This document shows positions 5,148-59,002 of a stretch of DNA of 64,000 nt, in pieces. The position numbers and the translations under genes were made by a program. This DNA is from Candidatus Brocadiia bacterium (lineage in GTDB: Bacteria > Planctomycetota > MHYJ01 > JACQXL01): NCBI GenBank assembly GCA_041658285.1, contig JBBAAP010000001.1, positions 260,916-324,915 of the forward strand, read 5' to 3'. The notes under the pieces are model-generated. The model saw only the letters and a list, made by a program, of their open reading frames with translations, ran no database searches and was not told the origin of the DNA. The stretch's first letter is position 1; each line of letters starts with the position of its first letter.

Positions 5148-5684
5148 TTATTCGCCTTCTTTCGTGGTTGCATTTTTAGTTGGCGGCGGGAACAAGCGGT
5201 CCTCGTCCTCCTGGGGCATTTCCAGTATGCCGGCCAGGGTGAAATCAACCCGCCAGGCCAGCGCCTTGGTCTCAGCCGATGCCGGCTCATACACGAAAGT
5301 AAATGTCTTGGAATATTCCGGATATTTCCAATGCCGCAGAACTACTTTGGCTTTCTGAACGTCTAGTCCAGTCCGACTGTCCTTTTCGTTATAATAATCG
5401 ATTGATTGCGTTTCCCAGTTTATCATCAAACTCCGGATAAGCACTCCGAAAATGGTCCATTTCATCATCATGTTGAAATCGCCGTATTTATAGCGGCTGC
5501 GGGTATTTTCCGACATACAGTAATAAGCCGTGCCGTAGTCTTCCTTTTCCAGGGCATCACGGAATATCTGCAGGTTCTTTTCCGGCGTCTCAATCGGGGC
5601 AATCGGCGGCCGGGGCGGGCAGGAAGCGCCCGGCAGCATAATAAGAAACACCGCGACCAATAATATTATTTGGTAAATTTTCAT
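5148..5684 (-). CDS. Hypothetical secreted protein, probably a lipoprotein
   Basis: The ORF track gives 5148..5735. I prefer the internal Met at 5684 because it starts the signal peptide MKIYQIILLVAVFLIMLPGASC (lipobox-like GASC). The mature part is rich in Trp and Tyr and matches no recognisable family. Confidence 0.5.
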   Translation of the reverse strand: MKIYQIILLVAVFLIMLPGASCPPRPPIAPIETPEKNLQIFRDALEKEDYGTAYYCMSENTRSRYKYGDFNMMMKWTIFGVLIRSLMINWETQSIDYYNEKDSRTGLDVQKAKVVLRHWKYPEYSKTFTFVYEPASAETKALAWRVDFTLAGILEMPQEDEDRLFPPPTKNATTKEGE

Positions 5685-5771
5685 AATTAACTGGCTGATT
5701 GTATAGCCATTAAGCCTGATGTCAAGAGAAATCAATAGGTTTAACTAATAAAGCTATTTATATTCAAATGG

Positions 5772-6641
5772 TTATTTAGATAAAGTCCGCATCGCACGGG
5801 TCAGGTATTTTAAGAGGTCCGAGGCTATCAACGAGTGCTGGCCGAGGTCTTTGGCGGCCAGGTCTCCAGCCTTGCCATGCAGGTAGACAGCCAGCTGGGT
5901 AGCCTGGAAATCGGGCAGCTTCTGGCCAAGTAAACCGGCGATGATTCCGGTCAGGACATCGCCCGAACCGGCCGTAGCCATGCCCGGGTTGCCGGTATCA
6001 TTAATGTAAATACGCTTGCCGTCGGTGACTATGGTCTGATAGCCCTTGAGGGCTATGATAATGCGGTGTTTCTTAGCGGTTTCTACGGATACTTTTTGGC
6101 GGTTGTGCTGGACATAAGCGCCGGACTTATTAATCAGACGGGCCATTTCGCCGGCGTGCGGAGTTAGAATAATGGAATTAGCTATGGACTTGACCATCCT
6201 GGGAATATATTCAGCATCGGATATGGCGTTAAGACCGTCGGCGTCAATCACTACTGGTTTCCGGCAGGCCAGCAGGAAATCCTGAACCAGCTTGATGGTC
6301 TCGTTGTTGCGCGATATGCCCGGACCGACCACGACAACATCAATATCCCTAGCCAGAGAAACCAGGCGCTCTTTGGCTTTATAAGCAAAGGTGCCGTCGT
6401 AGGTCTCGGGCATCGGAAAGGTAATAACCTCGGTCAGTTTGGAAGCCAGGATAGGCTGCTGTGATTTAGGCACGGCCAGGTAGACCAGCCCGGCGCCGGA
6501 CCTCAAAGCACCCATAGAACAGAGGTAGGCCGCGCCGGACATACCGGTAGAACCGGCCACCATCAGTATCTTGCCGTTATCGCCCTTATGGCAGTCGGGC
6601 CGACGGCAAGGCATTTCGGGTAATGTATCTATCAGTTTCAT
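5772..6641 (-). CDS. nnrD: ADP-dependent NAD(P)H-hydrate dehydratase (YjeF C-terminal domain family)
   Basis: 289 aa. It carries HKGDNGKILMVAGS and the GSGDVLTG ribokinase-like motifs typical of YjeF-C / Nnr2. Confidence 0.85.
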   Translation of the reverse strand: MKLIDTLPEMPCRRPDCHKGDNGKILMVAGSTGMSGAAYLCSMGALRSGAGLVYLAVPKSQQPILASKLTEVITFPMPETYDGTFAYKAKERLVSLARDIDVVVVGPGISRNNETIKLVQDFLLACRKPVVIDADGLNAISDAEYIPRMVKSIANSIILTPHAGEMARLINKSGAYVQHNRQKVSVETAKKHRIIIALKGYQTIVTDGKRIYINDTGNPGMATAGSGDVLTGIIAGLLGQKLPDFQATQLAVYLHGKAGDLAAKDLGQHSLIASDLLKYLTRAMRTLSK

Positions 6642-20767: not shown

Positions 20768-21188
20768 TTTTGTAAGCAGATTAAGCTGATTTATCTGATT
20801 TTAATCAAGTATTAATTTAGATTAGTAGACCGCTTATGTCAACCAAATTTCCTACACCCGAATACTTCAAATATAACCACTAAAACTACTGATTTTTAAT
20901 TTTACCACGAAGACACGAAAGTAAGAAAGCACTAAATTTCGTGTTTTGATAGTTTGGCTGTTAGAACATAGTGAGTTATCAGCCGACTATACCTAGCAGT
21001 CCATCGGCTGTTAGCGACAAAGGAGCGTTACAGCCGAGGATACCCAGCAGTAATTCACTAACGTTCAAACTGCTGGAGTATAATTCGCTAACACTCAAAC
21101 TGCCAGAGTACTGTTTCGAGTTTTCGTGGTATATTAATAAAATAATCAGTGTTCTCAGTGCCCTCAGTGGTTTAATATGGCGGATTTC
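20768..21188. repeat. Intergenic region composed of CAC-NNA-G family repeat modules
   Basis: It contains TACCACGAAGACACGAAAGTAAGAAAGCACTAAATTTCGTGTTTTG and GAGTTTTCGTGGTATATTAATAAAATAATCAGTGTTCTCAGTG. Its segments 20950-21000 and 21090-21110 recur as reverse complements at 23950-24040. Confidence 0.75.
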
Positions 21189-22451: not shown

Positions 22452-22502
22452 TATTAATTAGCCACGAATAAACTCGAATTAACACTAAATTATTCGTGTT
22501 TA

Positions 22503-23906
22503 TTAGTGTGCATTCGTGGTTTCAGCGGGGAATATTTTGCCGGAATTCATTATCCCCTTGGGGTCAAAGAGTGTTTTCAACTGCTTCATCAGCTCTATCT
22601 CGGCGGCGCTCAGCTCCAGCGCCAGGAAACGCGACTTGGTCAGCCCGATGCCGTGCTCGCCTGAAAGCGTTCCGCCGCACTTAACGGTCTCGGTAAAGAG
22701 TTCGTCCAACGCCTTTTCCAACGATGTTTTGTGTGCCTCGTTAGAGATAAGGAAATTAACGTGCAGGTTGCCGTCGCCCAGATGGCCGAAGGTGGCAATG
22801 GGGATTCCGTATTTTGATTCTATGGACTTAATCACGGCCAGGATATGGGTGATTTGGTCACGCGGCACGCAGATGTCCTCACTGGCCTTCTGGGCGGTGA
22901 TGGAATAAAGCGCCGGAGAAACGGCCTTGCGGATGGCCCAGAGCGATTTGGCTTCTTCCGGGCCGTTTGCCCGGAGCATCTTGCCCGGCCTTGACTGGCT
23001 GATTAATTCCTCCAGCGCCTTGGCTTGGCCGGCCAAGTCGTTCGGGTCGCCGTCCAGCTCTATCAAAATCCCGCTCCCAATTTCGGATTTCGGATTTCGG
23101 ATTTCGGATTTACCAAAATCAATATCTTTAAGATATGCTGTAACCGCCTTGAGCGATGAAGCGTCCATAAACTCTATGGCCCGGGGCAATATCCGTTTGG
23201 CCAGCGTATCCAACCCCAGCTTTACGGCCGCCGGTTCATTATCGTAAAATATAAAGAAAGTCGCCTCGGACTGCGGTTTGGGCACCAGCCGCAGGATTAT
23301 CTGGGTGATGATGCCCAGGGTTCCCTCGGAACCGATAAACAGGCGGGCCAGGTCGTAGCCGGTCGAGCGCTTGAGCGTCTTGCGTCCGGTATGGATGATT
23401 TGACCGCTGGGCAGGACAGCTTCCAGCCCAAGCACGTAATCCCTGGTGGTGCCGTATTTGATACAGCGCAGGCCTCCGGCGCCGCAGGCAACATTGCCGC
23501 CCAGGGTGCAGAAATCGGCGCTGGCCGGGTCAGGCGGGTAAAACAGGCCGTGCCGGCTGACCGCCTTCTGAAAATCAGCGCAGACCACACCCGGCTCAAC
23601 CACGGCCGTGAAGTTAACCGGATTAATCTCTATGATACGGTTCATTAAAGACAGGTCTATGACAATCCCGCCCTTGACCGGCACGGCCGAGCCGGTAACG
23701 GAACTGGCCGCACCCCGCGGGTAGACCGGGGTAGCGTGCTCCGAGGCAATCTTAAGGACATCGGATATCTCGGCGGCATTAAGCGGCTTAACAACTATGT
23801 CCGGCAGATGCTGGAGTTTGGAGGCGTCGTAAGACGCGGCTAACCGGTCCTCAGGCAACCTGGAAATCCGTTCCGCCGAGATTATTTTTCTTAGTTTGTC
23901 GTACAT
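22503..23906 (-). CDS. glcD: FAD-linked oxidase, GlcD / D-lactate dehydrogenase-like
   Basis: It has the FAD-binding PCMH domain (PRGAASSVTGSAVP...) and the conserved C-terminal GTLSGEHGIG motif. It contains an in-frame heptanucleotide repeat insert. Confidence 0.85.
   Translation of the reverse strand: MYDKLRKIISAERISRLPEDRLAASYDASKLQHLPDIVVKPLNAAEISDVLKIASEHATPVYPRGAASSVTGSAVPVKGGIVIDLSLMNRIIEINPVNFTAVVEPGVVCADFQKAVSRHGLFYPPDPASADFCTLGGNVACGAGGLRCIKYGTTRDYVLGLEAVLPSGQIIHTGRKTLKRSTGYDLARLFIGSEGTLGIITQIILRLVPKPQSEATFFIFYDNEPAAVKLGLDTLAKRILPRAIEFMDASSLKAVTAYLKDIDFGKSEIRNPKSEIGSGILIELDGDPNDLAGQAKALEELISQSRPGKMLRANGPEEAKSLWAIRKAVSPALYSITAQKASEDICVPRDQITHILAVIKSIESKYGIPIATFGHLGDGNLHVNFLISNEAHKTSLEKALDELFTETVKCGGTLSGEHGIGLTKSRFLALELSAAEIELMKQLKTLFDPKGIMNSGKIFPAETTNAH
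23080..23111. repeat. Heptanucleotide microsatellite (ATTTCGG) x4.6 inside the glcD-like coding sequence
   Basis: Copies start at 23080, 23087, 23094 and 23101, followed by a partial copy. On the minus strand it encodes KSEIRNPKSEIG, an insert relative to E. coli GlcD in the loop before the conserved ELDG. Confidence 0.85.
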
Positions 23907-26180: not shown

Positions 26181-26311
26181 GAGCTGTGTTAGTCAACACC
26201 GGAGCTATGTGATATAACATAAGAGCTGTGTGATATAACATAAGAGCTGTGTGATATAACATAAGAGCTGTGTGATATAACATAAGAGCAATATGACATC
26301 ATATTGCTCTT
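26181..26311. repeat. Tandem array B: 5 copies of a 21-bp unit (GAGCTGTGTGATATAACATAA) followed by a perfect 11-bp-stem hairpin
   Basis: The copies start at 26181 (degenerate), 26202, 26223, 26244 and 26265. The hairpin AGAGCAATATG-ACAT-CATATTGCTCT follows at 26284-26311. Confidence 0.85.
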
Positions 26312-26458: not shown

Positions 26459-26580
26459 ATACCTTGTGAGGTGGTTATATATACCTTGTGAGGTGGTTAT
26501 ATATACCTTGTGAGGTGGTTATATATACCTTGTGAGGTGGTTATACATACCTTGTAAGGTGGTTATATATACCTTGCATC
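26459..26580. repeat. Tandem array C: 5.5 copies of a 22-bp unit (ATACCTTGTGAGGTGGTTATAT), preceded by G8 and C7 homopolymer tracts at 26412-26429
   Basis: The copies start at 26459, 26481, 26503, 26525 and 26547, with a partial copy at 26569. The array abuts the suhB stop. Confidence 0.85.
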
Positions 26581-27459: not shown

Positions 27460-27610
27460 ATATTAAACCACTAAGTGCACTAAGAACACTGATTGTTTCA
27501 TTAATATACCACGAAAACTCGAAATAACCAAAACACAAAATTTAGTGTTTTCTTACTTTCGTGCCTTCGTGGTAAGATTGAAAATCAGTGATTTCAGTGT
27601 TCTCAGTGGT
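27460..27610. repeat. Mosaic palindromic intergenic repeat (CAC-NNA-G family), full copy
   Basis: The left arm AACCACTAAG..AACACTGA pairs with the right arm TCAGTGTTCTCAGTGGTT. The inner module ...CCACGAAAACTCGAAAT...CTTACTTTCGTGCCTTCGTGGTAAG is the reverse complement of the module at 28963-29040. Confidence 0.8.
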
Positions 27611-27616
27611 TGTATT

Positions 27617-28940: not shown

Positions 28941-29045
28941 TCCAAATACAACCACTAAGAACACTGAAATCACTGATTTCAATCTTACCACGAAGGCACG
29001 AAAGTAAGAAAGCACTAAATTTCGAGTTTTCGTGGTATATTAATA
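28941..29045. repeat. Mosaic palindromic intergenic repeat (CAC-NNA-G family), inverted relative to the copy at 27460-27610
   Basis: The sequence is AACCACTAAGAACACTGAAATCACTGATTTCAATCTTACCACGAAGGCACGAAAGTAAGAAAGCACTAAATTTCGAGTTTTCGTGGTATATTAATAAAA. Its terminal 30 bp are identical to 21116-21145. Confidence 0.8.
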
Positions 29046-29070
29046 AAACTTTACCGTGAAATCAGATGAA

Positions 29071-39880: not shown

Positions 39881-40001
39881 TACAATCTCACCACACATCG
39901 CACAGACGCGTAAAGATCCAATATAAAGTTATCTTTTATATGGATTTTCTTGATTTCCTTTGTTCAATTAGTTAAATCCTTTTGCTTTTGTTTTATCTTG
40001 C

Positions 40002-40083
40002 GCCGGGATGGTGGAATTGGCAGACACATACGTTTGAGGGGCGTATGCTGAAAAGCGTGCGAGTTCGAGTCTCGCTCCCGGCA
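40002..40083 (+). tRNA. tRNA-Leu (anticodon GAG), type II with long variable arm
   Basis: I folded it by hand: acceptor stem GCCGGGA/TCCCGGC with discriminator A; D-arm GTG-(GAATTGGCAGA)-CAC; anticodon stem TACGT/GCGTA with loop TTGAGGG (anticodon GAG, G37); a 13-nt variable arm; T-arm GCGAG-TTCGAGT-CTCGC. Confidence 0.85.
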
Positions 40084-40146
40084 TATTTTCTTTTATCCCA
40101 AAGAATTGAAGCACACAAATAATCCTCAGCGTTTTTGCGGTGAATA

Positions 40147-45492: not shown

Positions 45493-45556
45493 TAGCCACA
45501 GAGTCACAGAGGACACGGAGTAATACTAATGGTTTTGTCCCCTGTAGTTTTATAGA

Positions 45557-45925
45557 ATGGACATTAACCAACTTACGGAAAAAATTATCGGATGTGCGAT
45601 TGAAGTTCATCGATATCTTGGACCAGGGTTGCTTGAAAATATCTATGAATCCGCTCTCTGTATTGAGTTAGAAGCGGCTAAGTTAAAATATGGCCAACAG
45701 GTAGTTATACCGGTTATTTATAAAGGGAAACAAATTGGAGAAAACAGGATCGATTTAATAGTGGAAAATGAGGTCGTAGTTGAAATAAAGAGTGTGGAAA
45801 GATTTGATCCGGTTTTTGAAGCACAGGTTTTGACATATTTAAAAATAACTGGTAAAAAAGTTGGGTTATTGATTAATTTTAACAGTCGATTGCTTAAAGA
45901 CGGAATAAAAAGATTCATATTATGA
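45557..45925 (+). CDS. GxxExxY protein (PD-(D/E)XK nuclease superfamily, TIGR04256-like)
   Basis: 122 aa with G-LLENIY and D.IVE..VVVEIK motifs. It is low-GC and sits inside a palindromic intergenic repeat. Confidence 0.85.
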   Translation: MDINQLTEKIIGCAIEVHRYLGPGLLENIYESALCIELEAAKLKYGQQVVIPVIYKGKQIGENRIDLIVENEVVVEIKSVERFDPVFEAQVLTYLKITGKKVGLLINFNSRLLKDGIKRFIL

Positions 45926-46026
45926 TTCTCCGTGAACTCTATGTTTCTGTTAAAAGACGGGAATAGGAAAAATTATATTATGATTCTCTGTGAACTCTGC
46001 GCCTCAGTGGCAAAGACAAGGTATTT

Positions 46027-49041: not shown

Positions 49042-49254
49042 CCACTGAGGCACAGAGAACACCGAGAATTAATTATATTTAATCTCTATGAACTCTGAGT
49101 CTCTGTGGCTTAACTTATGAGAAAAGAAGAATACACCACAGACAAGCTCGAATACAATCTGGTTTTATAAGGAATCCAAGAGAACAAGAATAATTATTTT
49201 TCCTGAATTCCTGGTCTCCTTATAAATAGAATTCTCAGTGCTCTCTGTGCCTCT

Positions 49255-51158: not shown

Positions 51159-51729
51159 AAATCACCTCTTACTCGCTGTTAGCCTTCAGACATCCCGAAA
51201 GCATTCGGGAGGGCTGAGGCGTTACAGCCGAGTTAGATCCCGTCTGTTCCGACGGGATAATCCTTGCAGAATTCTATCTCGTTATACGGATACAGTGTCC
51301 GAATTCCACCCAAGAAACCCATATTCGCAGGAGACAAGGGCAACCCTTTGGCCAAGGAAACCCGGGGCAACCCGGCATCCCTGCCCGACTGGTCAGCCAC
51401 CCCTACCAACCCGGTCAGGCGGGCTTACGGATACCCCGGAGGGTGCGTTTCCTGTGCCCGAGGGCGCCCTTGCCCTCCACTATATACTCTGCCGGACCCC
51501 CACCCCTTTTGGGGAAAAATCCGGGAATTCCGGAAAGAAAGTTTAGCCAGAGCAAAACCTCCTGTAAGGACGGATTAACACGGATAAATATGGCTATAAT
51601 TAAATCTGTGTAATCAGTGGCTAAAACTTGACAGCCCCACGGAAATGGTATATTAGAGGCTTATTAATTATTAATTGAAGTTGTGGCAAAGTCAAGCAGG
51701 TAAAATAATCGTATTAAAGGATGCGTTGT

Positions 51730-52515
51730 ATGAATGAAGCCAGCAGGTTCCTTCGTTATGTATTGCCTAGTTTAATAATGTTACTAGAGTTTTTTATATA
51801 CCTATGTATTTCTAACTTTGGGGATGCGAAAAAATTACTAGAATATATACGTGGTGACATAGGAATAGCTATTATTTCTTTCTTGGGCGTCGGCGCTATG
51901 GGATATTTTTTATCAATGTTTTATTATTCCCTTTGCCCTCTAGTAGATTATCGCCCCCTTATTAAGGCTTGTACGGAATGGAATTTGTTAAGATTACAAG
52001 ATAGAAGTACACACAAACCTATAGATGTTGATAAGATTTCGCGTGATGGCGCGTGGCGAATAGCAGTTACGCTCTGGCAGGAAAATAAGATGAAAGACGA
52101 GGGGATAAAAGGAGCAGATGATAGGCAAGAAAGGTTTAGCGATATACTTAATAGTCACGGTGTAGCTTTAATTGGCGCAATTATAGGAATCCTTGGATGG
52201 TTTGCTTATATCACGTATACTGGGTTTATTAGGTCTCCAGTTTTTTGGGACAAGTGGCCTTTTATTATTTCGGTACCTATGCTAATAATACTTTTGCACA
52301 TATCTAATTTTAAGAATGCTCGTGAAACTGCTCTAACAATAGGGGAAACTGTATTATTTAATGCATTATCGAATAACTTTAAAATACCTTCAGAATTATA
52401 TGTCGAAAATAAAATACCAGAAGAGGAAAGAAGAAAAATAAATGCTAAGAAAATCTTTAGCATTAATTTTGGCAAGTATAACAAAGTAACATTTGAACGG
52501 TTTTATAATAATTAA
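51730..52515 (+). CDS. Hypothetical 4-TM membrane protein (low-GC islet); possible membrane effector
   Basis: It has two TM hairpins (residues ~13-70 and ~157-205) separated by a charged soluble loop. The tracked start is 51721; I prefer the ATG at 51730 because of the upstream AAAGG. Confidence 0.55.
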   Translation: MNEASRFLRYVLPSLIMLLEFFIYLCISNFGDAKKLLEYIRGDIGIAIISFLGVGAMGYFLSMFYYSLCPLVDYRPLIKACTEWNLLRLQDRSTHKPIDVDKISRDGAWRIAVTLWQENKMKDEGIKGADDRQERFSDILNSHGVALIGAIIGILGWFAYITYTGFIRSPVFWDKWPFIISVPMLIILLHISNFKNARETALTIGETVLFNALSNNFKIPSELYVENKIPEEERRKINAKKIFSINFGKYNKVTFERFYNN

Positions 52516-52529
52516 TCAAGGGTTATCAG

Positions 52530-53546
52530 ATGACTATAAATTGTTTATTCTGTAATCAACCACTTACCCAAGATGCTCAAATTCTCACGACATGGATTTA
52601 TTTAGATAGCTGTAAAGAATGTGGGCTTTATTATAAAGACCAACGAGCCGATGTTACCACTAAAATCAATGCCGATGATAAAGTTCGTATTGCATCGTAC
52701 CTGCAAACAAAGAAGCTGAATAATTCACAAATAAGACCAGTTATTACTGACTTTAAAAACAAATCAGGAACAATTGAGGAATTAGAAGATAATGGAATAA
52801 ATCCTAATAAAATAACGCTAATTACAATTGAAGAAATGATAGATCAGTTCCCTAAAAGAATTGATGAGAAACTAAATAAGGCATTACAGAACTTAGGAAA
52901 ACTATCTCATTACTTAGGTGAACCAATTACTGTGGGTTTAAACTACCAACCAATTTTGTATGCGTTAAACTCAGGGGAATTTGAGGCAATATTATTCGCT
53001 TTGCGTGATGATGGCTATATAAAATGTACGTGGGATGGTATTGCTGGAACTAACCTCATTGTAATAACCCCTAAAGGTTATGAACGTATTTATGAATTAG
53101 GCAAGGTTAACCCGACCTCTCATCAGGCGTTTGTGGCGATGTGGTTTCCTGATCCTGTGAAAAATGAGACGGAGCATAACTTTTTGGATAATGTCTATAA
53201 AGAAGGGTTCGCAAAAGCAATTGATAATGCTGGCTATAAGCCTCAATTAATAAAGAATAAGGAATTCCTCGGCGAGATACACGATGAAATTATTGCAGAG
53301 ATAAAAAGGAGCAGGTTTTTAGTGGCCGATTTTACAGGCCAAAGAGGCGGGGTTTATTATGAGGCCGGATTTGCCCATGGATTAAATATCCCAGTCATAT
53401 ATACCTGTCACTGTGATTATATGAAGGACTGTCACTTCGACACCAATCACTATAATCATATCGTCTGGAAAGATGAGGCAGATTTATATACCCAATTATT
53501 GAATAGGATAAGGGCAACCATTGGACAGGGACCAAAAACAAATTAA
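52530..53546 (+). CDS. Zinc-ribbon / winged-helix / nucleoside 2-deoxyribosyltransferase-like (NDT/SLOG-type Rossmannoid) protein
   Basis: It has an N-terminal CxxC-x17-CxxC ribbon (CLFCNQ...CKECG). The middle is wHTH-like (AILFALRDDGYIKC...LIVITPKGYERIYEL). The C-terminus has FVAMWF (NDT beta1, cf. YFGAGWF) and RFLVADFTGQRGGVYYEAGFAHGLNIPVIY (NDT active-site region, cf. GLGMELGYALSQGKYV). Confidence 0.6.
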   Translation: MTINCLFCNQPLTQDAQILTTWIYLDSCKECGLYYKDQRADVTTKINADDKVRIASYLQTKKLNNSQIRPVITDFKNKSGTIEELEDNGINPNKITLITIEEMIDQFPKRIDEKLNKALQNLGKLSHYLGEPITVGLNYQPILYALNSGEFEAILFALRDDGYIKCTWDGIAGTNLIVITPKGYERIYELGKVNPTSHQAFVAMWFPDPVKNETEHNFLDNVYKEGFAKAIDNAGYKPQLIKNKEFLGEIHDEIIAEIKRSRFLVADFTGQRGGVYYEAGFAHGLNIPVIYTCHCDYMKDCHFDTNHYNHIVWKDEADLYTQLLNRIRATIGQGPKTN

Positions 53547-53699
53547 GCATTTTCCATCTTAATTCTTCCACCCTTCCTCCGTATTTTTTACCCATTCCTT
53601 CGTGCTTGCCCCCCGGAAAACCGCCTGAATCGCCATTTAATTGCCTTTCTGGCACATAGGGGGTGGCATCCCCCCTACCCCACACCATCCCTACCATAC

Positions 53700-54065
53700 C
53701 CTCAAGCCCATCCATATCTACCCAGGGCTTGGGGGTGCTTATACCTCCAACCCACCCATATCTACCTAGGGCTGGACCGTCATCCACCCTGGGATTGACC
53801 GTAATCCACCCAGGGCTTGAGGGTCATTATACCTCCAGCCCACCTACATCTTACCTCCAACCCATCCACATCTACCCAGGGCTTGACCGTCATCCACCCT
53901 GGGCTTGACCGTAATCCACCCAGGGCTTGGGGGGCATTATACCTCCATACCACCCACATCTTACCTCCAACCCATCCACATCTACCCAGGGCTGGACCGA
54001 CATCCACCTAGGGCTTGACCGTAATCCACCCAGGGCTTGAGGGTAATTATACCTGGTATGGAGGG
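53700..54065. repeat. Minisatellite: ~110-bp unit, ~3.3 tandem copies with nested 22-bp sub-repeats
   Basis: TCTACC(C/T)AGGGCT recurs at 53761, 53871 and 53981 (period 110), and ATCCACCCAGGGCTTGACCGT-like subunits recur within each unit. The ORFs called here (53395..54090, both strands) are repeat artefacts. Confidence 0.8.
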
Positions 54066-54203
54066 TAAGGCACCTTCGGAGTACTCGCAAATATTTTGAC
54101 TTATTTTATGTTTTAACCTATATTAAAACACGAAGCAGACGAATAATCTTTAATGCCACGAATAAGATTCGTGGGATTCGTTCTATTAGTGAGATTCGTG
54201 TTT

Positions 54204-54884
54204 ATGGATAACAGACCAGATGAGCAATTGACCGCGGCATATGTGTCCGGTGAACAGCCGGCATTCGACCACCTGGTCCACCGCTGGCAACCGAGGCTGT
54301 TCGGGTTCGCCTGCCGTAAGCTTTCCTGCATCGAACTCTTCGTGCCCGATACCAAACGAGGCGAAAGTAAAATCAACTCCGACGCCGACGAGGTGTCTGA
54401 GTCAACCATCGTATCCACCTGGAAAAACATCCGGCGCTTTAACGACACCCGGAAATTCTCGTCCTGGATTTATAAAATCTGCAAGGACGAGTGTTATATG
54501 TTCACCCGGTCCGAAGCGCGCCGGAACAAACATTGCGTGCCCCTGCCTGAGGATATCGACAAACTCAGATACGGCAAGGTGCGTGAATACGCCGAGGCCA
54601 AAATCACGATGGACTGCATCCTGGCTATCCTGAACCACCGACAGCACCGCTTGTTCGACCTGATTGTCGAGGACGGACGGCATTACGAGGCCATCCTGCA
54701 GGAGGACGAACTGTTCCGGGCAAATAACGAGCCGGAGCTGAGGGACGAATTCGCCGTGCTGATGGAAATGCTCTGGCTCAAACGGCAGAAGGAGATTGAC
54801 AACCTGCATAAGCACGACACCGAGTTCAGGGATATCAGCCTGCGGTACCACGCCGACGGCCCGCATATAAAGAAGGATAATTAG
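54204..54884 (+). CDS. RNA polymerase sigma factor, ECF-like
   Basis: Region 2 is present (AFDHLVHRWQPRLFGFA ... STWKNIRRF ... FSSWIYKICKDE). The tracked start is 54153; I prefer the ATG at 54204 (MDNRPDEQL). Confidence 0.65.
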   Translation: MDNRPDEQLTAAYVSGEQPAFDHLVHRWQPRLFGFACRKLSCIELFVPDTKRGESKINSDADEVSESTIVSTWKNIRRFNDTRKFSSWIYKICKDECYMFTRSEARRNKHCVPLPEDIDKLRYGKVREYAEAKITMDCILAILNHRQHRLFDLIVEDGRHYEAILQEDELFRANNEPELRDEFAVLMEMLWLKRQKEIDNLHKHDTEFRDISLRYHADGPHIKKDN

Positions 54885-55036
54885 CTAAGAAGAATTAGCC
54901 ACGAATGGACACGAATAAACACGAATATCACGGATTAAATTAATACTAGGAGAATTTACCACGAAGGCTCGAAACTATTAAAGCACGGAATATTTCGGGT
55001 TTTCGCTATTTCGTGGTTTCGTGGTAAAGGACTTAT

Positions 55037-55564
55037 ATGAACAAACGGCCTATTATTATAAAGATAATTCTAATCCTGCTTATCTGGGAAAACCTTGTAT
55101 TCGTCTTAGGCCTGGCTGATACATTTATTGTGCACAAATCATGGAGTTCATTTCTCATTCCAAGTATAATTCTCCTCGCTTACGCATACATTGCGGGTTT
55201 ACTGTCTTTGGTTTCGACCATAGGCGTTTGGCGCGCTAAGAAATGGGGCTGGTGGACCGGCGCTTTGTATTTCATATTTCTCGTAATAATAAATATAAGT
55301 TTATTTATTCCCTTGCCCGGGTTTATTGGAATGTTCAGTCAATCCCCTCTTGGAATATCTTTTTATATTGAGCGTGTGTGTTGGGGCCTATTTAGCGCCT
55401 TGATATTCCTGGCTTTCTTCAAGGATAACGTGCTGGAATATTTCGGCTTTCAACAACTGCCCAAAACAAAGGTAATTGCCATCTTATCTTTAACCGCCCT
55501 GTTAATTTTATTGATACTTGTCATACTGATGGCGAAATTTACTCCTTATCTAAACAGAATATAA
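55037..55564 (+). CDS. Hypothetical 4-TM membrane protein (paralog 1, low GC)
   Basis: 175 aa. Its start MNKRPIIIKIILILLIW and the block GVWRAKKWGWWTGAL are shared with the next gene. Confidence 0.6.
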   Translation: MNKRPIIIKIILILLIWENLVFVLGLADTFIVHKSWSSFLIPSIILLAYAYIAGLLSLVSTIGVWRAKKWGWWTGALYFIFLVIINISLFIPLPGFIGMFSQSPLGISFYIERVCWGLFSALIFLAFFKDNVLEYFGFQQLPKTKVIAILSLTALLILLILVILMAKFTPYLNRI

Positions 55565-55583
55565 ATACAAAATGGGAGCGTAT

Positions 55584-56105
55584 ATGAACAAGCGGCCTCT
55601 TATTATAAAGATAATCCTCTTCCTGCTTATCTGGGGATGTGCCTTATCTATTTTCAAGCTAAGTTATTTATTTATTTTGTATGGTAAAAATATTATCTAC
55701 GCGGATACGTTCAGCTTCGTTTATATATACATAGCTCTTATGGGATTACTGTCTTTAATTTCAGCAGTCGGTATCTGGCGCGCTAAGAAATGGGGCTGGT
55801 GGATAGGTGCTTTACGTTTTATGTGTAACGCATTATGGAATGCAAATAGATTTATTTGGATACCCCTCGGGTTTATTGGAACAGCCAGTAAATATTCTTC
55901 TGCGAAATATTGCCTTGAATATGGTGGTTTTGGGCTAGTTTCCGCCTTTTTATTCATGCTTTTCTTCAATAAGAATGCACTGGAATATTTCGGCCTGCAA
56001 CAACAACCTAAAATAAAGGCAATAGTTATCTTGTTTGTAATAGCTCTGACAATTGTAGCTGTGTTAAATATGCCATCGTTGATATTTATTTACCGCCATA
56101 TTTAA
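55584..56105 (+). CDS. Hypothetical 4-TM membrane protein (paralog 2, low GC)
   Basis: It has MNKRPLIIKIILFLLIW and GIWRAKKWGWWIGAL. I prefer the ATG at 55584, which has a GGGAG SD; the tracked start is 55572. Confidence 0.6.
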   Translation: MNKRPLIIKIILFLLIWGCALSIFKLSYLFILYGKNIIYADTFSFVYIYIALMGLLSLISAVGIWRAKKWGWWIGALRFMCNALWNANRFIWIPLGFIGTASKYSSAKYCLEYGGFGLVSAFLFMLFFNKNALEYFGLQQQPKIKAIVILFVIALTIVAVLNMPSLIFIYRHI

Positions 56106-56169
56106 GATAATACTTATAATTTCTGATTTTTACTATTTCGTGTTTTCGTGGTAAGGCAAGGGAGCTTAT

Positions 56170-57576
56170 ATGAAAGATTGCGCTAAATTCAAGGCCGACA
56201 TCACCGATTACGCCCGGGGCGCGCACGAGCATATCAAGGATTTCGACGCCTTGTTCGACCACCTGCGCCAATGCGAAGACTGCCGGAACAAGCTCTTCGG
56301 GCTGGAGGAAACATTCACGCATCTCAAATCCAAAGGCAAGAAGAAGCAATCCCTGGATGAATTAAAGCAGATATTCCGAAAAGGCCTGCCGCCGGAGCGC
56401 AAGCCGACCGAGGCCGAGGGTATGCTCAGGCAAGGCATCAGCGCCTTTAAGGAAGGTAAATTCCCGGCCGCCCGGATTCTGCTCAATATCGCCGTCAAGC
56501 TCCTACCGGAGGATGACAAGCTGTCGGACACGGACAGACAGACCAAGGCCGACGCCTATTACCACCTGGGGCTGGTGCACCAGGCGGACAACAACCTGGA
56601 CGGCGCGCTCTACACATTTTCACGGGCCATCGAGCTGGACCCGGACGACGCCGACGCCCATTTCTACCGGGCCGGTATCTACCACAATTACAACCAGCTC
56701 AAGGCGGCGCTCAAGGATTACAGCGCGGCTATCGAGCTCAACCCCGATTACACCGAGGCCCTGCGTGAGCGGGCCAGCCTGCTCTTCGACATCCGGCAGT
56801 TCCAGCCGGCCGTGGCCGATGCCGACCGGCTTATCGAATTGGAGCCGGCCAACGGCTGGCATTATTTCCTGCGGGCTATGATTTACGAAACGATGGGCCG
56901 GCTTGAGGAGGCCATCTCGGACTGCACCAAGGCTTTGGAACTTCAGCCGCCGGAGCACGAGCCCTTACAGGGTAAAATCCCCCCGGCCTTGAACGCACTG
57001 GCCTACACCATACGGGGACGGAGCTACGGGCTGATGGGCGAGCTGGCCAAGGCCCGGGCAGATTTCGACCGGCTGATTAAGCTGGAGCCGGACAACCCGG
57101 ACGCATATTTCTACCGGGGCGTGATGTTCGCCCAGGGGGCGCAGATGATGTCGGAATCGGACCAATACCAGGCGTTGCTGGCCAAGGCCGTGGCCGATTT
57201 CAGGCAGTCGCTCAAGCTCAAGCCGGGCGACCGGACCACCAACGATTACCTGGTCCAGGCCGAGCAGGAACTGGCCGGACGGCAGATGGAGGCCAAAATC
57301 CGGGACATCCAGAACGAGATAGCATCGCGTTACCAGAAAGACAGCGCCAAACTGCAGGACAAATACGAGGCCGAGATAACCCTGCTTAAGAAAGAGATAG
57401 AGCTGTTAAAGGAGCACGTCAAGGTGATAGCCGAAATCTCCAAGCAGAAGCCGGAGTACCATTACCATATCGAGACGCCTATGCCTGTAATAAAACCGAT
57501 GCGGGATATTTTCCAACAACCGCCGGCCCATCCGATTAGCCCGACCGACATAAAGATTCCGCCGAAGAAGGATTAA
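56170..57576 (+). CDS. Putative anti-sigma factor: N-terminal zf-HC2 (H-x3-C-x2-C), TPR repeats, C-terminal coiled coil
   Basis: It has HLRQCEDCRNK near the N-terminus, multiple TPR units (AYYHLGLVHQADNNLDGALYTFSRAIELDP...) and a heptad-rich tail. Confidence 0.6.
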   Translation: MKDCAKFKADITDYARGAHEHIKDFDALFDHLRQCEDCRNKLFGLEETFTHLKSKGKKKQSLDELKQIFRKGLPPERKPTEAEGMLRQGISAFKEGKFPAARILLNIAVKLLPEDDKLSDTDRQTKADAYYHLGLVHQADNNLDGALYTFSRAIELDPDDADAHFYRAGIYHNYNQLKAALKDYSAAIELNPDYTEALRERASLLFDIRQFQPAVADADRLIELEPANGWHYFLRAMIYETMGRLEEAISDCTKALELQPPEHEPLQGKIPPALNALAYTIRGRSYGLMGELAKARADFDRLIKLEPDNPDAYFYRGVMFAQGAQMMSESDQYQALLAKAVADFRQSLKLKPGDRTTNDYLVQAEQELAGRQMEAKIRDIQNEIASRYQKDSAKLQDKYEAEITLLKKEIELLKEHVKVIAEISKQKPEYHYHIETPMPVIKPMRDIFQQPPAHPISPTDIKIPPKKD

Positions 57577-57585
57577 CAATCAACT

Positions 57586-58191
57586 ATGCCGACCATTCCG
57601 ACGCACGCGTTTATGGGTTATGTGGTGGCCAGCCTGGGCAGTGGTTATGTCCCGGCCGAGCGGCGGCACAGTTACGGCGTTACAGTTATGGCGCTTTCGG
57701 TCCTGCCGGATGCCGATGCCCTGTTTATGAAATGGATTCCTTACGGGAATATGCTCGGCCACCGGGGATTGAGCCATTCACTGGTCTTTGCCGGACTGCT
57801 GGCATTGGCCGCCGTTTTCATCCTGCGCGATGTCCGCCGGAACTTCCCCGGCGGGGTCTGGGGACTGTTCGGTCTTTTCTGGATAGCCTTTGCCATGCAC
57901 GGCGTGCTGGACGCATTGACGAACGGCGGGCTGGGCGTGGGATTCTTCATACCGTTTGATAACAGCCGCTTCTTCTTCCCGATTCATCCGATACCGGTAT
58001 CGCCGATTGGCATAGGAACCCTTTTACATCTGTGGTGGAGCATAGAATGCTTTGCCGCGGAATTCCTGATGCTCTGGACTATCGGCTTGGGCGTGATTAT
58101 TTTAGCACGCGGCAGGTTCAGATATCGCTCGGCGGTTTCAGCAATACTTATCTTAATCGGTATCGTTTCCTGGATTAGCCGGATATTTTAG
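57586..58191 (+). CDS. Membrane-bound metal-dependent hydrolase, YdjM family
   Basis: It has LPDADAL and HRGLSHSL motifs and 4-5 TM helices. Confidence 0.7.
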   Translation: MPTIPTHAFMGYVVASLGSGYVPAERRHSYGVTVMALSVLPDADALFMKWIPYGNMLGHRGLSHSLVFAGLLALAAVFILRDVRRNFPGGVWGLFGLFWIAFAMHGVLDALTNGGLGVGFFIPFDNSRFFFPIHPIPVSPIGIGTLLHLWWSIECFAAEFLMLWTIGLGVIILARGRFRYRSAVSAILILIGIVSWISRIF

Positions 58192-58250
58192 GCACTACTG
58201 GCAGTCAACAGACAGACTCCTACTAACTTCAATAATATATATAAAATTAT

Positions 58251-58278
58251 TTGACATTTTCTGCTGTCCGGGTATAGT
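58251..58278 (+). promoter_or_regulatory. Sigma70-like promoter (TTGACA-16 nt-TATAGT) driving the pseudopilin operon through a ~180-nt structured leader
   Basis: TTGACA lies at 58251-58256 and TATAGT at 58273-58278. Two 75-nt direct repeats follow (58309-58383 and 58384-58458), each with two hairpins, then a GAGGAGG SD. Confidence 0.6.
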
Positions 58279-58462
58279 CACCCTCGTAGAAGTAACTGCA
58301 ATTATATGTATCCTGCTAAACTACGTTTAGCTGGATTTGAGTCGCTAGAGCGACTAAAGCCCAACAGCGATGGGAAATGTAGTTATCCTGCTAAACTACG
58401 TTTAGCTGGATCTAAGTCGCTGTAACGACTAAAGTCTAACAGCGACTAAGAGGAGGAGTTAT

Positions 58463-59002
58463 ATGAAACACAGCAATAATAGCAAGGGCGGGTTTACGTT
58501 GATTGAACTGCTGGTGGTTATCGCCATTATCGGCATCCTGGCCAGCCTGGTCCTGCCGGGCGTGGCTAACGCCAAGTTCAGGGCTAATATGCTCAAGTGC
58601 AGCCGCAACCTGACCAGCCTTTACGCCGGTCTGCTCCAGTATGAAATGTCAATGGGCGGCTACCCCAGAGGCGATACTTATAAGGGCGCCGGGTTCTGGA
58701 ACGTCCTGCGCCAGATGCCCACCCCGGAAACATCGGCCCTGGGCACCAAGAACCACGATAAGTTCGTCTGCCCGTTGGTCGGAGATGCCCCGGGCGACGG
58801 CGTCTGCAATTACCGCGGTCCTAATTTCACCATCACCGCGGCTACGGATGAAAGCCGCCCCATCGGCGCCGATAGAACAACCAACCACGACCCGGAAAAC
58901 AGCCAGAAGGATATCAACGTCCTTTATTTCGGCGGACAGGTCATCGCGGTCAAGGCCAGCTCGGCCGATTGGACCGACGCGGATTCCAGATTGCAGGATT
59001 AA
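58463..59002 (+). CDS. Prepilin-type N-terminal cleavage/methylation domain protein (DUF1559 / H-X9-DG-like pseudopilin)
   Basis: It has GFTLIELLVVIAIIGILASLVLP and a C-terminal NVLYFGGQV motif (cf. NVLFADGHV). Confidence 0.85.
   Translation: MKHSNNSKGGFTLIELLVVIAIIGILASLVLPGVANAKFRANMLKCSRNLTSLYAGLLQYEMSMGGYPRGDTYKGAGFWNVLRQMPTPETSALGTKNHDKFVCPLVGDAPGDGVCNYRGPNFTITAATDESRPIGADRTTNHDPENSQKDINVLYFGGQVIAVKASSADWTDADSRLQD

Follow-up and report, generated by a model that had tools for sequence, protein, structure and literature searches.

Among the described pairs of extracytoplasmic function (ECF) sigma factors and anti-sigma factors, SigW-RsiW of Bacillus subtilis, SigR-RsrA and RpoE-ChrR come closest to the system analysed here, with which they share a small two-domain sigma factor with a clearly homologous region 2 and an adjoining partner that carries an N-terminal C/H...H-x3-C-x2-C motif at ChrR-like spacing. 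Soluble anti-sigma factors are a minority arrangement, present in 10 ECF groups (PMC7826278). The system lies in a 64,000-nt stretch of a Candidatus Brocadiia genome (assembly GCA_041658285.1, contig JBBAAP010000001.1, positions 260,916 to 324,915 of the forward strand), hereafter referred to as the window. It differs from pairs of the SigW-RsiW type in that no region-4 sequence model recognises the C-terminal sigma domain, region 2 holds a 15-aa insertion, the soluble anti-sigma factor combines TPR repeats with a long C-terminal helical region, and foreign genes stand between the two partners. Our preferred reading, to which we assign a probability of about 0.7, is that of a conserved sigma/anti-sigma operon whose spacer, marked by a generic palindrome of phased short words, is an insertion hot spot holding imported membrane-protein genes.

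The sigma gene (54204..54884, plus strand) encodes an ECF-type polypeptide of 226 aa with a sigma-2 domain and a divergent C-terminal domain. Region 2 was recognised by Pfam Sigma70_r2 (PF04542; E = 4.5e-8, 33.2 bits against a cutoff of 24), and a clade profile matched region 2 of SigW and SigE in the PDB at E-values of 2.5e-13 to 3.5e-13, the matches ending at position 108. The clade consists of about 25 proteins, its named members coming from metagenome-assembled genomes (MAGs) of Planctomycetota; region 2 only was identified in all of them, and region 4 gave no Pfam or NCBIfam match in any. The 15-aa insertion was common to the window and two orthologous loci, L002 and L146. An AlphaFold (AF2) model of the sigma factor based on 25 clade members (pLDDT 80) contained a confident four-helix C-terminal domain (residues 125-203, pLDDT 77-92), and Foldseek aligned 190-208 columns to full-length sigmaE, SigW, AlgU and CnrH with a probability of 1.0, at TM-scores of only 0.31-0.49. 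The presence of two domains only, lacking regions 1.1 and 3, together with a co-encoded anti-sigma factor, agrees with an ECF-type protein.

The anti-sigma candidate (56170..57576, plus strand) has an N-terminal zinc motif (C4/H31-x3-C35-x2-C38), TPR repeats assigned to TPR families by Pfam and a coiled-coil-like region at its C-terminus. Residues C4, H31, C35 and C38 were invariant in seven orthologues with identities down to 32%, in keeping with a ZAS motif. A profile of the N-terminal part matched RsiW (5wuq_C, E = 6.9e-4) over 36 residues around the HxxxCxxC helix, with the next matches being unrelated (E > 0.2); Pfam zf-HC2 gave no match in this protein at E <= 0.1. The polypeptide has no membrane segment, as judged by a maximum hydropathy of 0.72 in a Kyte-Doolittle profile. 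The best PDB matches of the two proteins are from one complex, 5wuq, and the sigma gene was linked to the TPR/ZAS gene in eight of eight loci examined, with an overlap of 8 nt in L148. Based on the region 2 and fold matches of the sigma factor, the invariant zinc-motif residues, the RsiW profile match and the conserved linkage, we accept the pair, as predicted from sequence and model, as an ECF-type sigma factor and a ZAS-like soluble anti-sigma factor, divergent in region 4 and in the anti-sigma domain. The zf-HC2 label given in a preliminary description of the locus is not that of Pfam, which calls neither zf-HC2 nor sigma region 4; the basis of these two assignments is the conserved residues together with the PDB profile and fold matches. 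By homology, the anti-sigma factor would hold sigma inactive by binding its two domains, and the cue for release would be cytoplasmic, either thiol or zinc chemistry or a partner acting through the TPR repeats.

The two genes are separated by a pair of low-GC paralogous genes in the order and at the coordinates described previously. TM1 (55037..55564, plus strand) encodes a small membrane protein of 175 aa with approximately five hydrophobic segments (Kyte-Doolittle profile), and TM2 (55584..56105, plus strand; start most likely at 55584 according to the alignment with TM1) is its tandem paralogue, with 47% identity and repeats D4, D5 and D10 spaced 547 nt. The earlier designation as membrane proteins was correct, with four to five hydrophobic segments instead of strictly four. 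The GC contents of the sigma, TM1, TM2, anti-sigma and downstream ydjM genes were 0.545, 0.386, 0.360, 0.581 and 0.553, respectively, and those at third codon positions (GC3) were 0.74, 0.44, 0.38, 0.78 and 0.66. The compositional break is real; amino-acid content alone is insufficient to explain it. All five genes are co-directional. The last of them, encoding a YdjM-family inner-membrane protein (57586..58191, plus strand; Pfam YdjM, E = 9.5e-23), begins 9 nt after the anti-sigma gene, is found at the same position in L146 and, judged by this arrangement, is probably the final gene of the same transcription unit. Downstream of it, positions 58192-58462 contain two direct repeats of about 80 nt (gtatcctgctaaactacgtttagctggat...gtcgct...gactaaag...), upstream of a prepilin-type gene (58463-59002).

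Comparison of orthologous loci showed that the contents of the spacer vary, which was the outcome of the synteny check proposed in the preliminary description. A metagenome scan for sigma relatives returned two true clade members, one of them known before, and synteny was built from exact-protein look-ups, with genes in the fetched loci called as simple open reading frames (ORFs). In L148 (sigma approximately 39% identical) the spacer is empty and the two genes overlap by 8 nt, while L007 (TPR protein 44% identical) and L147 (sigma approximately 41% identical) hold a palindrome only, made of CGCAGAG and CACAGAT words, respectively. A four-helix-bundle gene (PF05635/TIGR02436) occupies the spacer in L004, L005 and L006 (TPR protein 37% identical), and another (PF05635) does so in L149, a paralogue in the MAG of L147. 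L002 (sigma 71% identical) holds a 150-aa lipoprotein-like gene, and L146 (sigma 68%, TPR protein 56% identical) a homologue of the TM genes (41% and 38% identical to TM1 and TM2, GC 0.36) together with an unrelated 169-aa gene. In the loci with cargo, GC3 was lower in all inserted genes (0.32-0.47) than in the flanking sigma and TPR genes (0.59-0.78). Direct repeats flank the insert in L004 (16 nt, at both ends) and in the window (36 nt). A second case of cargo within the window is a 122-aa GxxExxY gene (45557-45925, GC 0.34, TIGR04256 E = 1e-44; region 45493-46026), which is bracketed by CACAGAG arms, with CCACAGAGTCACAGAGGACACGGAG as the left arm and two right arms of the CTCYGTG type. Locus L149 (MAG JACRIK01) encodes, at 5148-6263 downstream of the four-helix-bundle insert, a TPR protein of 371 aa that lacks the N-terminal zinc-motif domain; from its sequence, the insertion may have truncated or uncoupled the anti-sigma factor of that locus.

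The window spacer is lined by arms of phased words. The left arm (54898..54933, plus strand) starts 14 nt past the sigma stop and consists of three or four phased CACGAAT/CACGGAT words, as had been noted for the region upstream of TM1; Tandem Repeats Finder (TRF) delimited the array to 54900-54927 with a period of 10, and CCACGAATGGACACGAATAAACACGAATATCAC is located at 54899-54931. On folding of 54895-55032, the left arm paired with TTTCGTGGTTTCGTGG (z = -3.2). A complete CACGAA-word palindrome follows at 54955..55028, with gapless arms of 37 nt each (54955-54991 and 54992-55028) and a folding energy of -28.2 kcal/mol (z = -4.4). This palindrome belongs to the same family as elements at 20.9, 27.5 and 29.0 kb, and its right end is the first copy of a motif (55009-55027), 9 nt before the TM1 start. 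The second copy (56136-56154), 15 nt before the anti-sigma start, is part of an orphan right arm (56119..56156, plus strand) that has no adjacent left partner and no folding of its own (z = +0.43). Positions 54992-55027 and 56119-56154 form a direct repeat with 31 of 36 positions identical, after which similarity returns at CTTATATGAA over both start codons. The near-identity of these upstream sequences is therefore longer than described previously, whereas their reported distance of 15-17 nt from the start codons was not reproduced: the strings CTATTTCGTGGTTTCGTGGTAAAGG (55006-55030) and CTATTTCGTGTTTTCGTGGTAAGG (56133-56156) end 6 and 13 nt before the ATGs, the distances being 9 and 15 nt if measured from ...GGTAA. 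These two strings, CCACGAATGGACACGAATAAACACGAATATCAC and the perfect palindrome preceding the sigma gene (CCACGAATAAGATTCGTGG, 54156-54174) were found where they had been reported, each exactly once in the window.

At orthologous sigma loci this architecture recurs with different words (CACAGAT, CGCAGAG, CACAAAG). The sequences following the sigma stop are CCACGAATGGACACGAATAAACACGAAT in the window, CCACAGATGGACACAGATAAACACAGG in L002 and CCACGAATGAGCACGGATG in L146; among these arms the spacers GGA and AAA are kept and every copy of the word has changed alike, the words of L002 being CACAGAT. CACGGAT is a one-step intermediate between the word types.

The motif is dispersed within the window. 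Allowing up to three mismatches, TTTCGWGNNTTCGTGGTA was present in nine copies against 0.05 expected, over five separate spacers, the copies of TTTCGTGNTTTCGTGGTAA being located at 20902 (minus), 21114 (plus), 27506 (minus), 27557 (plus), 28985 (minus), 29020 (plus), 54956 (minus), 55009 (plus) and 56136 (plus). Most of these form divergent pairs, resulting in hairpin palindromes between unrelated genes; the copies at 20.9-29.0 kb, between co-directional minus-strand genes, have the form ACCACGAA-nn-CACGAAA, loop, TTTCGWG-nn-TTCGTGGTA. Of the nine copies, five are directed towards a start codon, at distances of 9, 15, 51, 114 and 134 nt, and four towards a gene 3' end. Of the two compact copies, that at 27.5 kb is the reverse complement of that at 29.0 kb, and orientation relative to genes is accordingly not fixed. 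Apart from the sigma locus, at least five intergenic spacers carry the element, at 20.9, 21.1, 27.5 and 29.0 kb and, as a CACGAAT variant, at 22.5 kb. On its own, the heptamer CACGAAT shows no enrichment over the window (11 found, 8.8 expected); it is the phased arrays and the longer motif that are enriched. A blind count of triple phased-word arrays (6-mers, at most one mismatch, period 8-11) gave 19 in the window, compared with 1-5 in Markov shuffles, and 14-15 of the 19 fell within the intergenic 10% of the window. Hairpin z-scores of complete elements ranged from -3.2 to -8.7.

The same architecture, using other words, was identified at 2368-2441 (CACAAAG), 22458-22524 (CACGAAT), 45496-45520 with 45928-46013 (CACAGAG), 49042-49112 (CACTGAG/CACAGAG) and 51579-51625, and on either side of a tRNA-Leu(GAG) gene (40002-40083, ARAGORN), where arms of CAC/CGC words lie in the region 39881-40146. 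A composite repeat of about 150 nt is present in three copies (20876-21172, 27467-27612 and 28950-29070), in which the loop of a CACTAAG/CAGTG palindrome encloses a CACGAA palindrome; the copy at 20.9 kb is split by a 170-nt insertion with a 30-nt tandem repeat of its own (21051-21110). No Rfam family reached its gathering score in the window, in a scan that also missed the tRNA-Leu found by ARAGORN, and none was obtained at E <= 1 in 53400-56300.

Exact matches to TTTCGWGNNTTCGTGGTA were also found in GTDB species genomes, where 40 of the 126 matches listed carry CCACGAA within 160 nt upstream, compared to about 1% by chance as estimated from k-mer length. About 500 random matches are estimated for a database of this size, and single matches therefore mean little; the flanks of the paired matches contained the same three-word arms. 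The source MAG itself was not among the matches listed. Among the matches listed, palindromic ones came from at least 10 phyla, and carriers included Desulfobacterales (one with a 7-Mb chromosome), several Planctomycetota, Elusimicrobiota, Ca. Edwardsbacteria, Ca. Desantisbacteria, Ignavibacteria, Cyclobacteriaceae, Saprospiraceae, Gemmatimonas, Armatimonadia, Ca. Binatia and a Thermoplasmata archaeon MAG, a taxonomic spread that MAG binning errors could inflate, especially in the archaeal case. The contig of that archaeon (L060, MAG JAEHCK01) contains CACGAA palindromes and planctomycete-like arrays of the word CACAGATAAACACAGATAAACAGAGAT near 2400-2500, which represents either cross-domain spread or a binning error. 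Small ORFs beside the motif in other genomes encode ATP synthase epsilon, GrpE, RuvX, RNase P, HypA, ScpA and others. Arm pairs lying far apart with cargo between them were rare, at 7 of 86 against none in the control direction. In 57 CACGAA arm pairs the words were nearly invariant.

Several identities for the element were considered and set aside. A viral origin was rejected based on viral contigs used as a control, in which none of 22 motif matches was palindromic. No gene family was enriched beside the CACGAA motif among 62 small flanking ORFs of other genomes, with PDDEXK_3 represented once, and a general association with selfish genes of the type found in intervening sequences (IVS) was dropped on these grounds; RAYT or other transposases were likewise absent from the top families of these ORFs. 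Intrinsic terminators were discounted, there being no U-tract directly after the stems and a scan having returned six sites against 5.0 expected, and readings as DnaA boxes, uptake sequences or Rho-loading sites were abandoned on misfit of sequence or distribution, with no dedicated test. REP sequences are short G+C-rich stem-loops tagged by an unpaired GTAG or CGTC (PMC3733652). The elements here end in (A)ACCAC...GTGGT(A), with no GTAG/CGTC tag in the window elements or the 57 arm pairs, and membership of the REP family was rejected. Terminal inverted repeats, small size, many dispersed copies and either orientation are features shared with miniature inverted-repeat transposable elements; target-site duplication, another of their features, was not seen. 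Full-text literature searches on the element, its words and the cargo families yielded no description of this element type.

Upstream of the sigma gene, a candidate promoter of sigma-70 type (TTGACT-17-TATATT, 10 of 12 matches to consensus) is located at 54096..54124 on the plus strand. In the window, L002 and L146, the sigma genes have a conserved promoter-like block in common in their 5' leaders (TTGACT or TTTGCT, 17 nt, TATATT), with the -10 region CTATATTA unchanged and the -35 region similar, followed by a palindrome made of different words in each. The palindrome of the window (54126..54203, plus strand) lies between the promoter candidate and the sigma start; it is compound, consists of ACGAA/TTCGT words, includes CCACGAATAAGATTCGTGG and is predicted to fold as RNA with -24.5 kcal/mol (z = -3.8). 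The palindromes of L002 and L146 occupy the same position before the sigma gene.

The promoter candidate is itself preceded by a tandem array with a 22-nt sub-period and a 110-nt super-unit, following a G5-loop-C6 hairpin (53655..54070, outside the coordinates of the preliminary description); TRF reported 53742-54054 with a period of 110, 2.8 copies and 91% matches, as well as several rows of 22 nt. Arrays of 22-nt period were found upstream of the sigma promoter in six of eight orthologous loci, L147 and L149 being without (L002 4175-4522, L004 3988-4405, L007 7-264, L146 10-96 and L148 3670-3939). In the window, L002, L004 and L148 the array is preceded by a run-of-G/loop/run-of-C hairpin and 'ACTACAC'. 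The units differ among genomes, with TGACCGTCAT still common to the window and L002, and the combination of conserved position with fast-changing units is odd. Two more such arrays (26202-26289 and 26459-26576) are located in a convergent spacer of the window at about 26 kb. Directly upstream of the array at the sigma locus lies a two-gene island of low GC (0.34-0.36; 51721-53546). It encodes a membrane protein with a weak BA5345-family match as well as a protein of 338 aa whose C-terminus is TIR-like/nucleoside-deoxyribosyltransferase-like (PADLOC 'TIR' effector, E = 1.6e-8); from these matches the island may be a defence module.

Taken as a conserved operon with an insertion hot spot, the locus would have the following history. 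It is a two-gene regulatory module conserved in a Brocadiia-related planctomycete clade, its spacer in most lineages containing a generic hairpin palindrome with three phased (period 9-10) 6-7-nt 'CAC' words per arm, which runs from ACCAC... just past the upstream stop to ...GTGGT(A) shortly ahead of the following ribosome-binding site; what had been noted previously as TTCGTG, CACGAAT and palindrome motifs are arms of such elements. TM1 and TM2 resemble each other (47%) more than either resembles the copy in L146, which suggests that a foreign low-GC membrane-protein gene arrived before the split from the L146 lineage and was duplicated in tandem afterwards. The right arm, ribosome-binding site and start context would then form the direct repeat that precedes TM1 and the anti-sigma gene and flanks the insert. 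The four genes and ydjM are probably co-transcribed from the candidate promoter at 54096-54124, and any role of the hairpins at the RNA level would be in processing, stability or translation. The most likely points of cargo entry are the repeat arms or the AT-rich loop, either by recombination there or by insertion. The alternative origin offered in the preliminary description, cassettes inserted later and carried on CAC-repeat elements, is supported by the variable cargo, the low GC3, the flanking arm repeats and the membrane-protein homologues found at unrelated loci beside arms of this type; this support covers a location of the genes between or next to arms and does not extend to their being carried on them.

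A number of observations weigh against this reading. The motif census is based on 64 kb of the source genome, from which genome-wide statistics are extrapolated, a promoter scan found four sites against 6.7 expected, and both the candidate promoter and co-transcription are at consensus level only. No target-site duplication was detected across the 57 arm pairs (flanks T/A-rich on the left and A-rich on the right, the latter partly constrained by the search pattern), and no transposase or integrase for elements or cargo turned up, integrases not having been the object of a dedicated examination. The 2-nt spacers did not covary between arms in the 57 pairs (Watson-Crick pairs 29 against 29.4 expected and 17 against 22.5), and folding on the transcribed strand was not consistently better (9 of 15). 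Moreover, two lineages with TPR proteins that share only 56% identity both retain the TM homologue in this slot, and it may for this reason have acquired a role in the system. Given the lack of spacer covariation and of a strand bias, we make no case for an RNA structure under selection. Either recognition or copying acts on the words themselves, or the elements are palindromes at the level of DNA, with insertion in either orientation.

A wider proposal, which we consider doubtful, is that the phased-word palindromes (ACCAC-word x3 ... word' x3-GTGGT) are an undescribed cross-phylum superfamily of portable landing or recombination sites moving small low-GC genes, with spread across phyla and possibly across domains. 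The word classes CACGAAA, CACAGAT, CGCAGAG, CACAAAG and CACTGAG recur in Planctomycetota, Desulfobacterota, Elusimicrobiota, Bacteroidota, several candidate phyla and the Thermoplasmata MAG, and the words would be the recognised unit because they are conserved, evolve in concert and show no spacer covariation. GxxExxY, four-helix-bundle 'IVS' and small membrane proteins would move among operon spacers of co-habiting anaerobes, in a form of gene capture like that of integrons or rRNA intervening sequences and without a linked recombinase.

It is unlikely that the TM proteins have been co-opted, for example as a membrane anchor or sensor for the soluble anti-sigma factor, with the arm and ribosome-binding site tuning translation or mRNA processing. 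Such a function would suit an anti-sigma factor without a membrane segment and the retention of a TM homologue in L146, and conserved blocks in TM1 and TM2 (for example WRAKKWGWW) indicate that the genes are under constraint. A word-indexed homology search with TM1 returned TM1 itself only, and full HMMER searches gave 227 remote relatives, so that the family itself is real; one of them (P0293) is a fusion to TPR repeats. Pfam DUF2127 (PF09900) was at best a borderline match: it scored 21.2 bits with TM2 (gathering cutoff 24.3), gave no match with TM1 and scored 24.9 bits with the relative P0244. The two closest relatives outside the sigma loci argue in the other direction, as no sigma or anti-sigma genes were present in their contexts. 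P0243 (L150), 38% identical to TM1, has a GC content of 0.375 in a locus of 0.50, lies between HEAT-repeat and DUF366 genes and is followed by AATCTGTGAAATCTGTGGCT, the same type of arm as that before the L146 TPR gene. P0244 (L153), from a uniformly low-GC genome (0.38), is preceded by GCCACAGATTTCACAGATT on a contig that also contains nested CACAGAT/GCGGAT palindromes and a 22-nt tandem array. Moreover, the TM gene is absent from L002, the L004 group, L007, L147, L148 and L149, which contain other cargo or none, and the GC3 of TM1 and TM2 is still foreign.

We consider it improbable that the element ends are portable outward promoters (...GTGGTAWWWT resembling an extended -10, TGnTAnnnT) that give TM1 and the anti-sigma gene promoters of their own, as in Correia elements. 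In the 126 instances listed, the sequence past GTGGTA is rich in A/T and has an excess of T at +4 to +7, and the window offers examples in TGGTATATT (21129, 27506 on the minus strand, and 29035) and TGGTAAGAT. However, the GGTA is forced by the search pattern itself, the hexamers at TM1 and the anti-sigma gene (TAAAGG and TAAGGC) have no T at position 6, and, with transcription starting 7 nt downstream, the ribosome-binding site would be lost or cut short. Many copies would also drive antisense transcription into the neighbouring gene, and a promoter scan found nothing at the motif copies, reporting near these genes only 54096 and a weak site at 56079-56108 inside the end of TM2.

Finally, the suggestion in the preliminary description that TTTCGTG-N-TTTCGTGGTAA is an operator or promoter for this sigma factor or a dedicated regulator, defining a small envelope-stress regulon with TM1 and TM2 as effectors, is very improbable: two copies do lie near starts (9 and 15 nt) in the same orientation with 31 of 36 positions identical, and related words also precede the sigma gene, but the half-motif spacing of 10 bp is unlike a -35/-10 promoter and the scans of the window and GTDB showed the motif to be the terminal arm of a dispersed palindromic element without start-codon bias (five unrelated spacers, four copies toward gene 3' ends, start distances of 9-134 nt, compact copies opposite in orientation to genes, and housekeeping genes as neighbours in at least 10 phyla, most not shown to have the sigma clade), the very distribution that the description had named as fatal to a regulon, while sigma orthologues 68-71% identical carry different words at homologous sites.

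The analysis removes a tempting but wrong regulon prediction. It also delimits a small clade of ECF-like sigma factors in planctomycetes, whose region 4 is unrecognisable and whose partner is a soluble anti-sigma factor with a zinc motif and TPR repeats. The spacer of this pair repeatedly took up unrelated foreign genes, though product stoichiometry should matter there, and the repeats that mark it belong to an element type whose words recur unchanged in uncultivated anaerobes of many phyla. Such elements are a recurring source of spurious ORFs and of false 'motif' discoveries in MAG annotation. Should they mediate gene capture or be bound by a conserved factor, they would provide a new handle on the spread of accessory genes among uncultivated anaerobes.

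Described systems offer partial parallels to the spacer and its palindromes; in each comparison, that with pairs of the SigW-RsiW type included, at least one defining feature is lacking. As in the intervening sequences of 23S rRNA, which RNase III excises at the stem, a small accessory ORF lies in the loop of a long inverted repeat within a transcribed region; the four-helix-bundle/23S_rRNA_IVP family, which takes its name from these sequences, is itself the cargo in L004 and L149, and the GxxExxY gene is placed likewise. Here, however, the elements lie between protein-coding genes, and the cargo of the window spacer is a membrane protein. With integron cassettes and attC sites the locus has in common promoterless small foreign genes of varied function at a defined spot, bounded by imperfect palindromes of constant architecture and variable sequence. 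This is a resemblance only, as there is no cassette array and the arms are phased word repeats; no attC R''/R' cores (RYYYAAC/GTTRRRY) were present in the arms, and no integrase was seen, though none was specifically looked for. Correia/NEMIS elements of Neisseria, ERIC/IRU and REP/REPIN are similar in their size of 50-150 nt, inverted arms, intergenic location in either orientation, strong hairpin potential and nesting, and in co-transcription with neighbouring genes, which is probable here. Those families are lineage-restricted, whereas near-identical words occur here in at least 10 phyla. The elements described here further differ in that no target-site duplication was seen, in arms that are built from three phased copies of a short word, and in words that change in concert at orthologous sites (CACGAAT, CACGGAT, CACAGAT).

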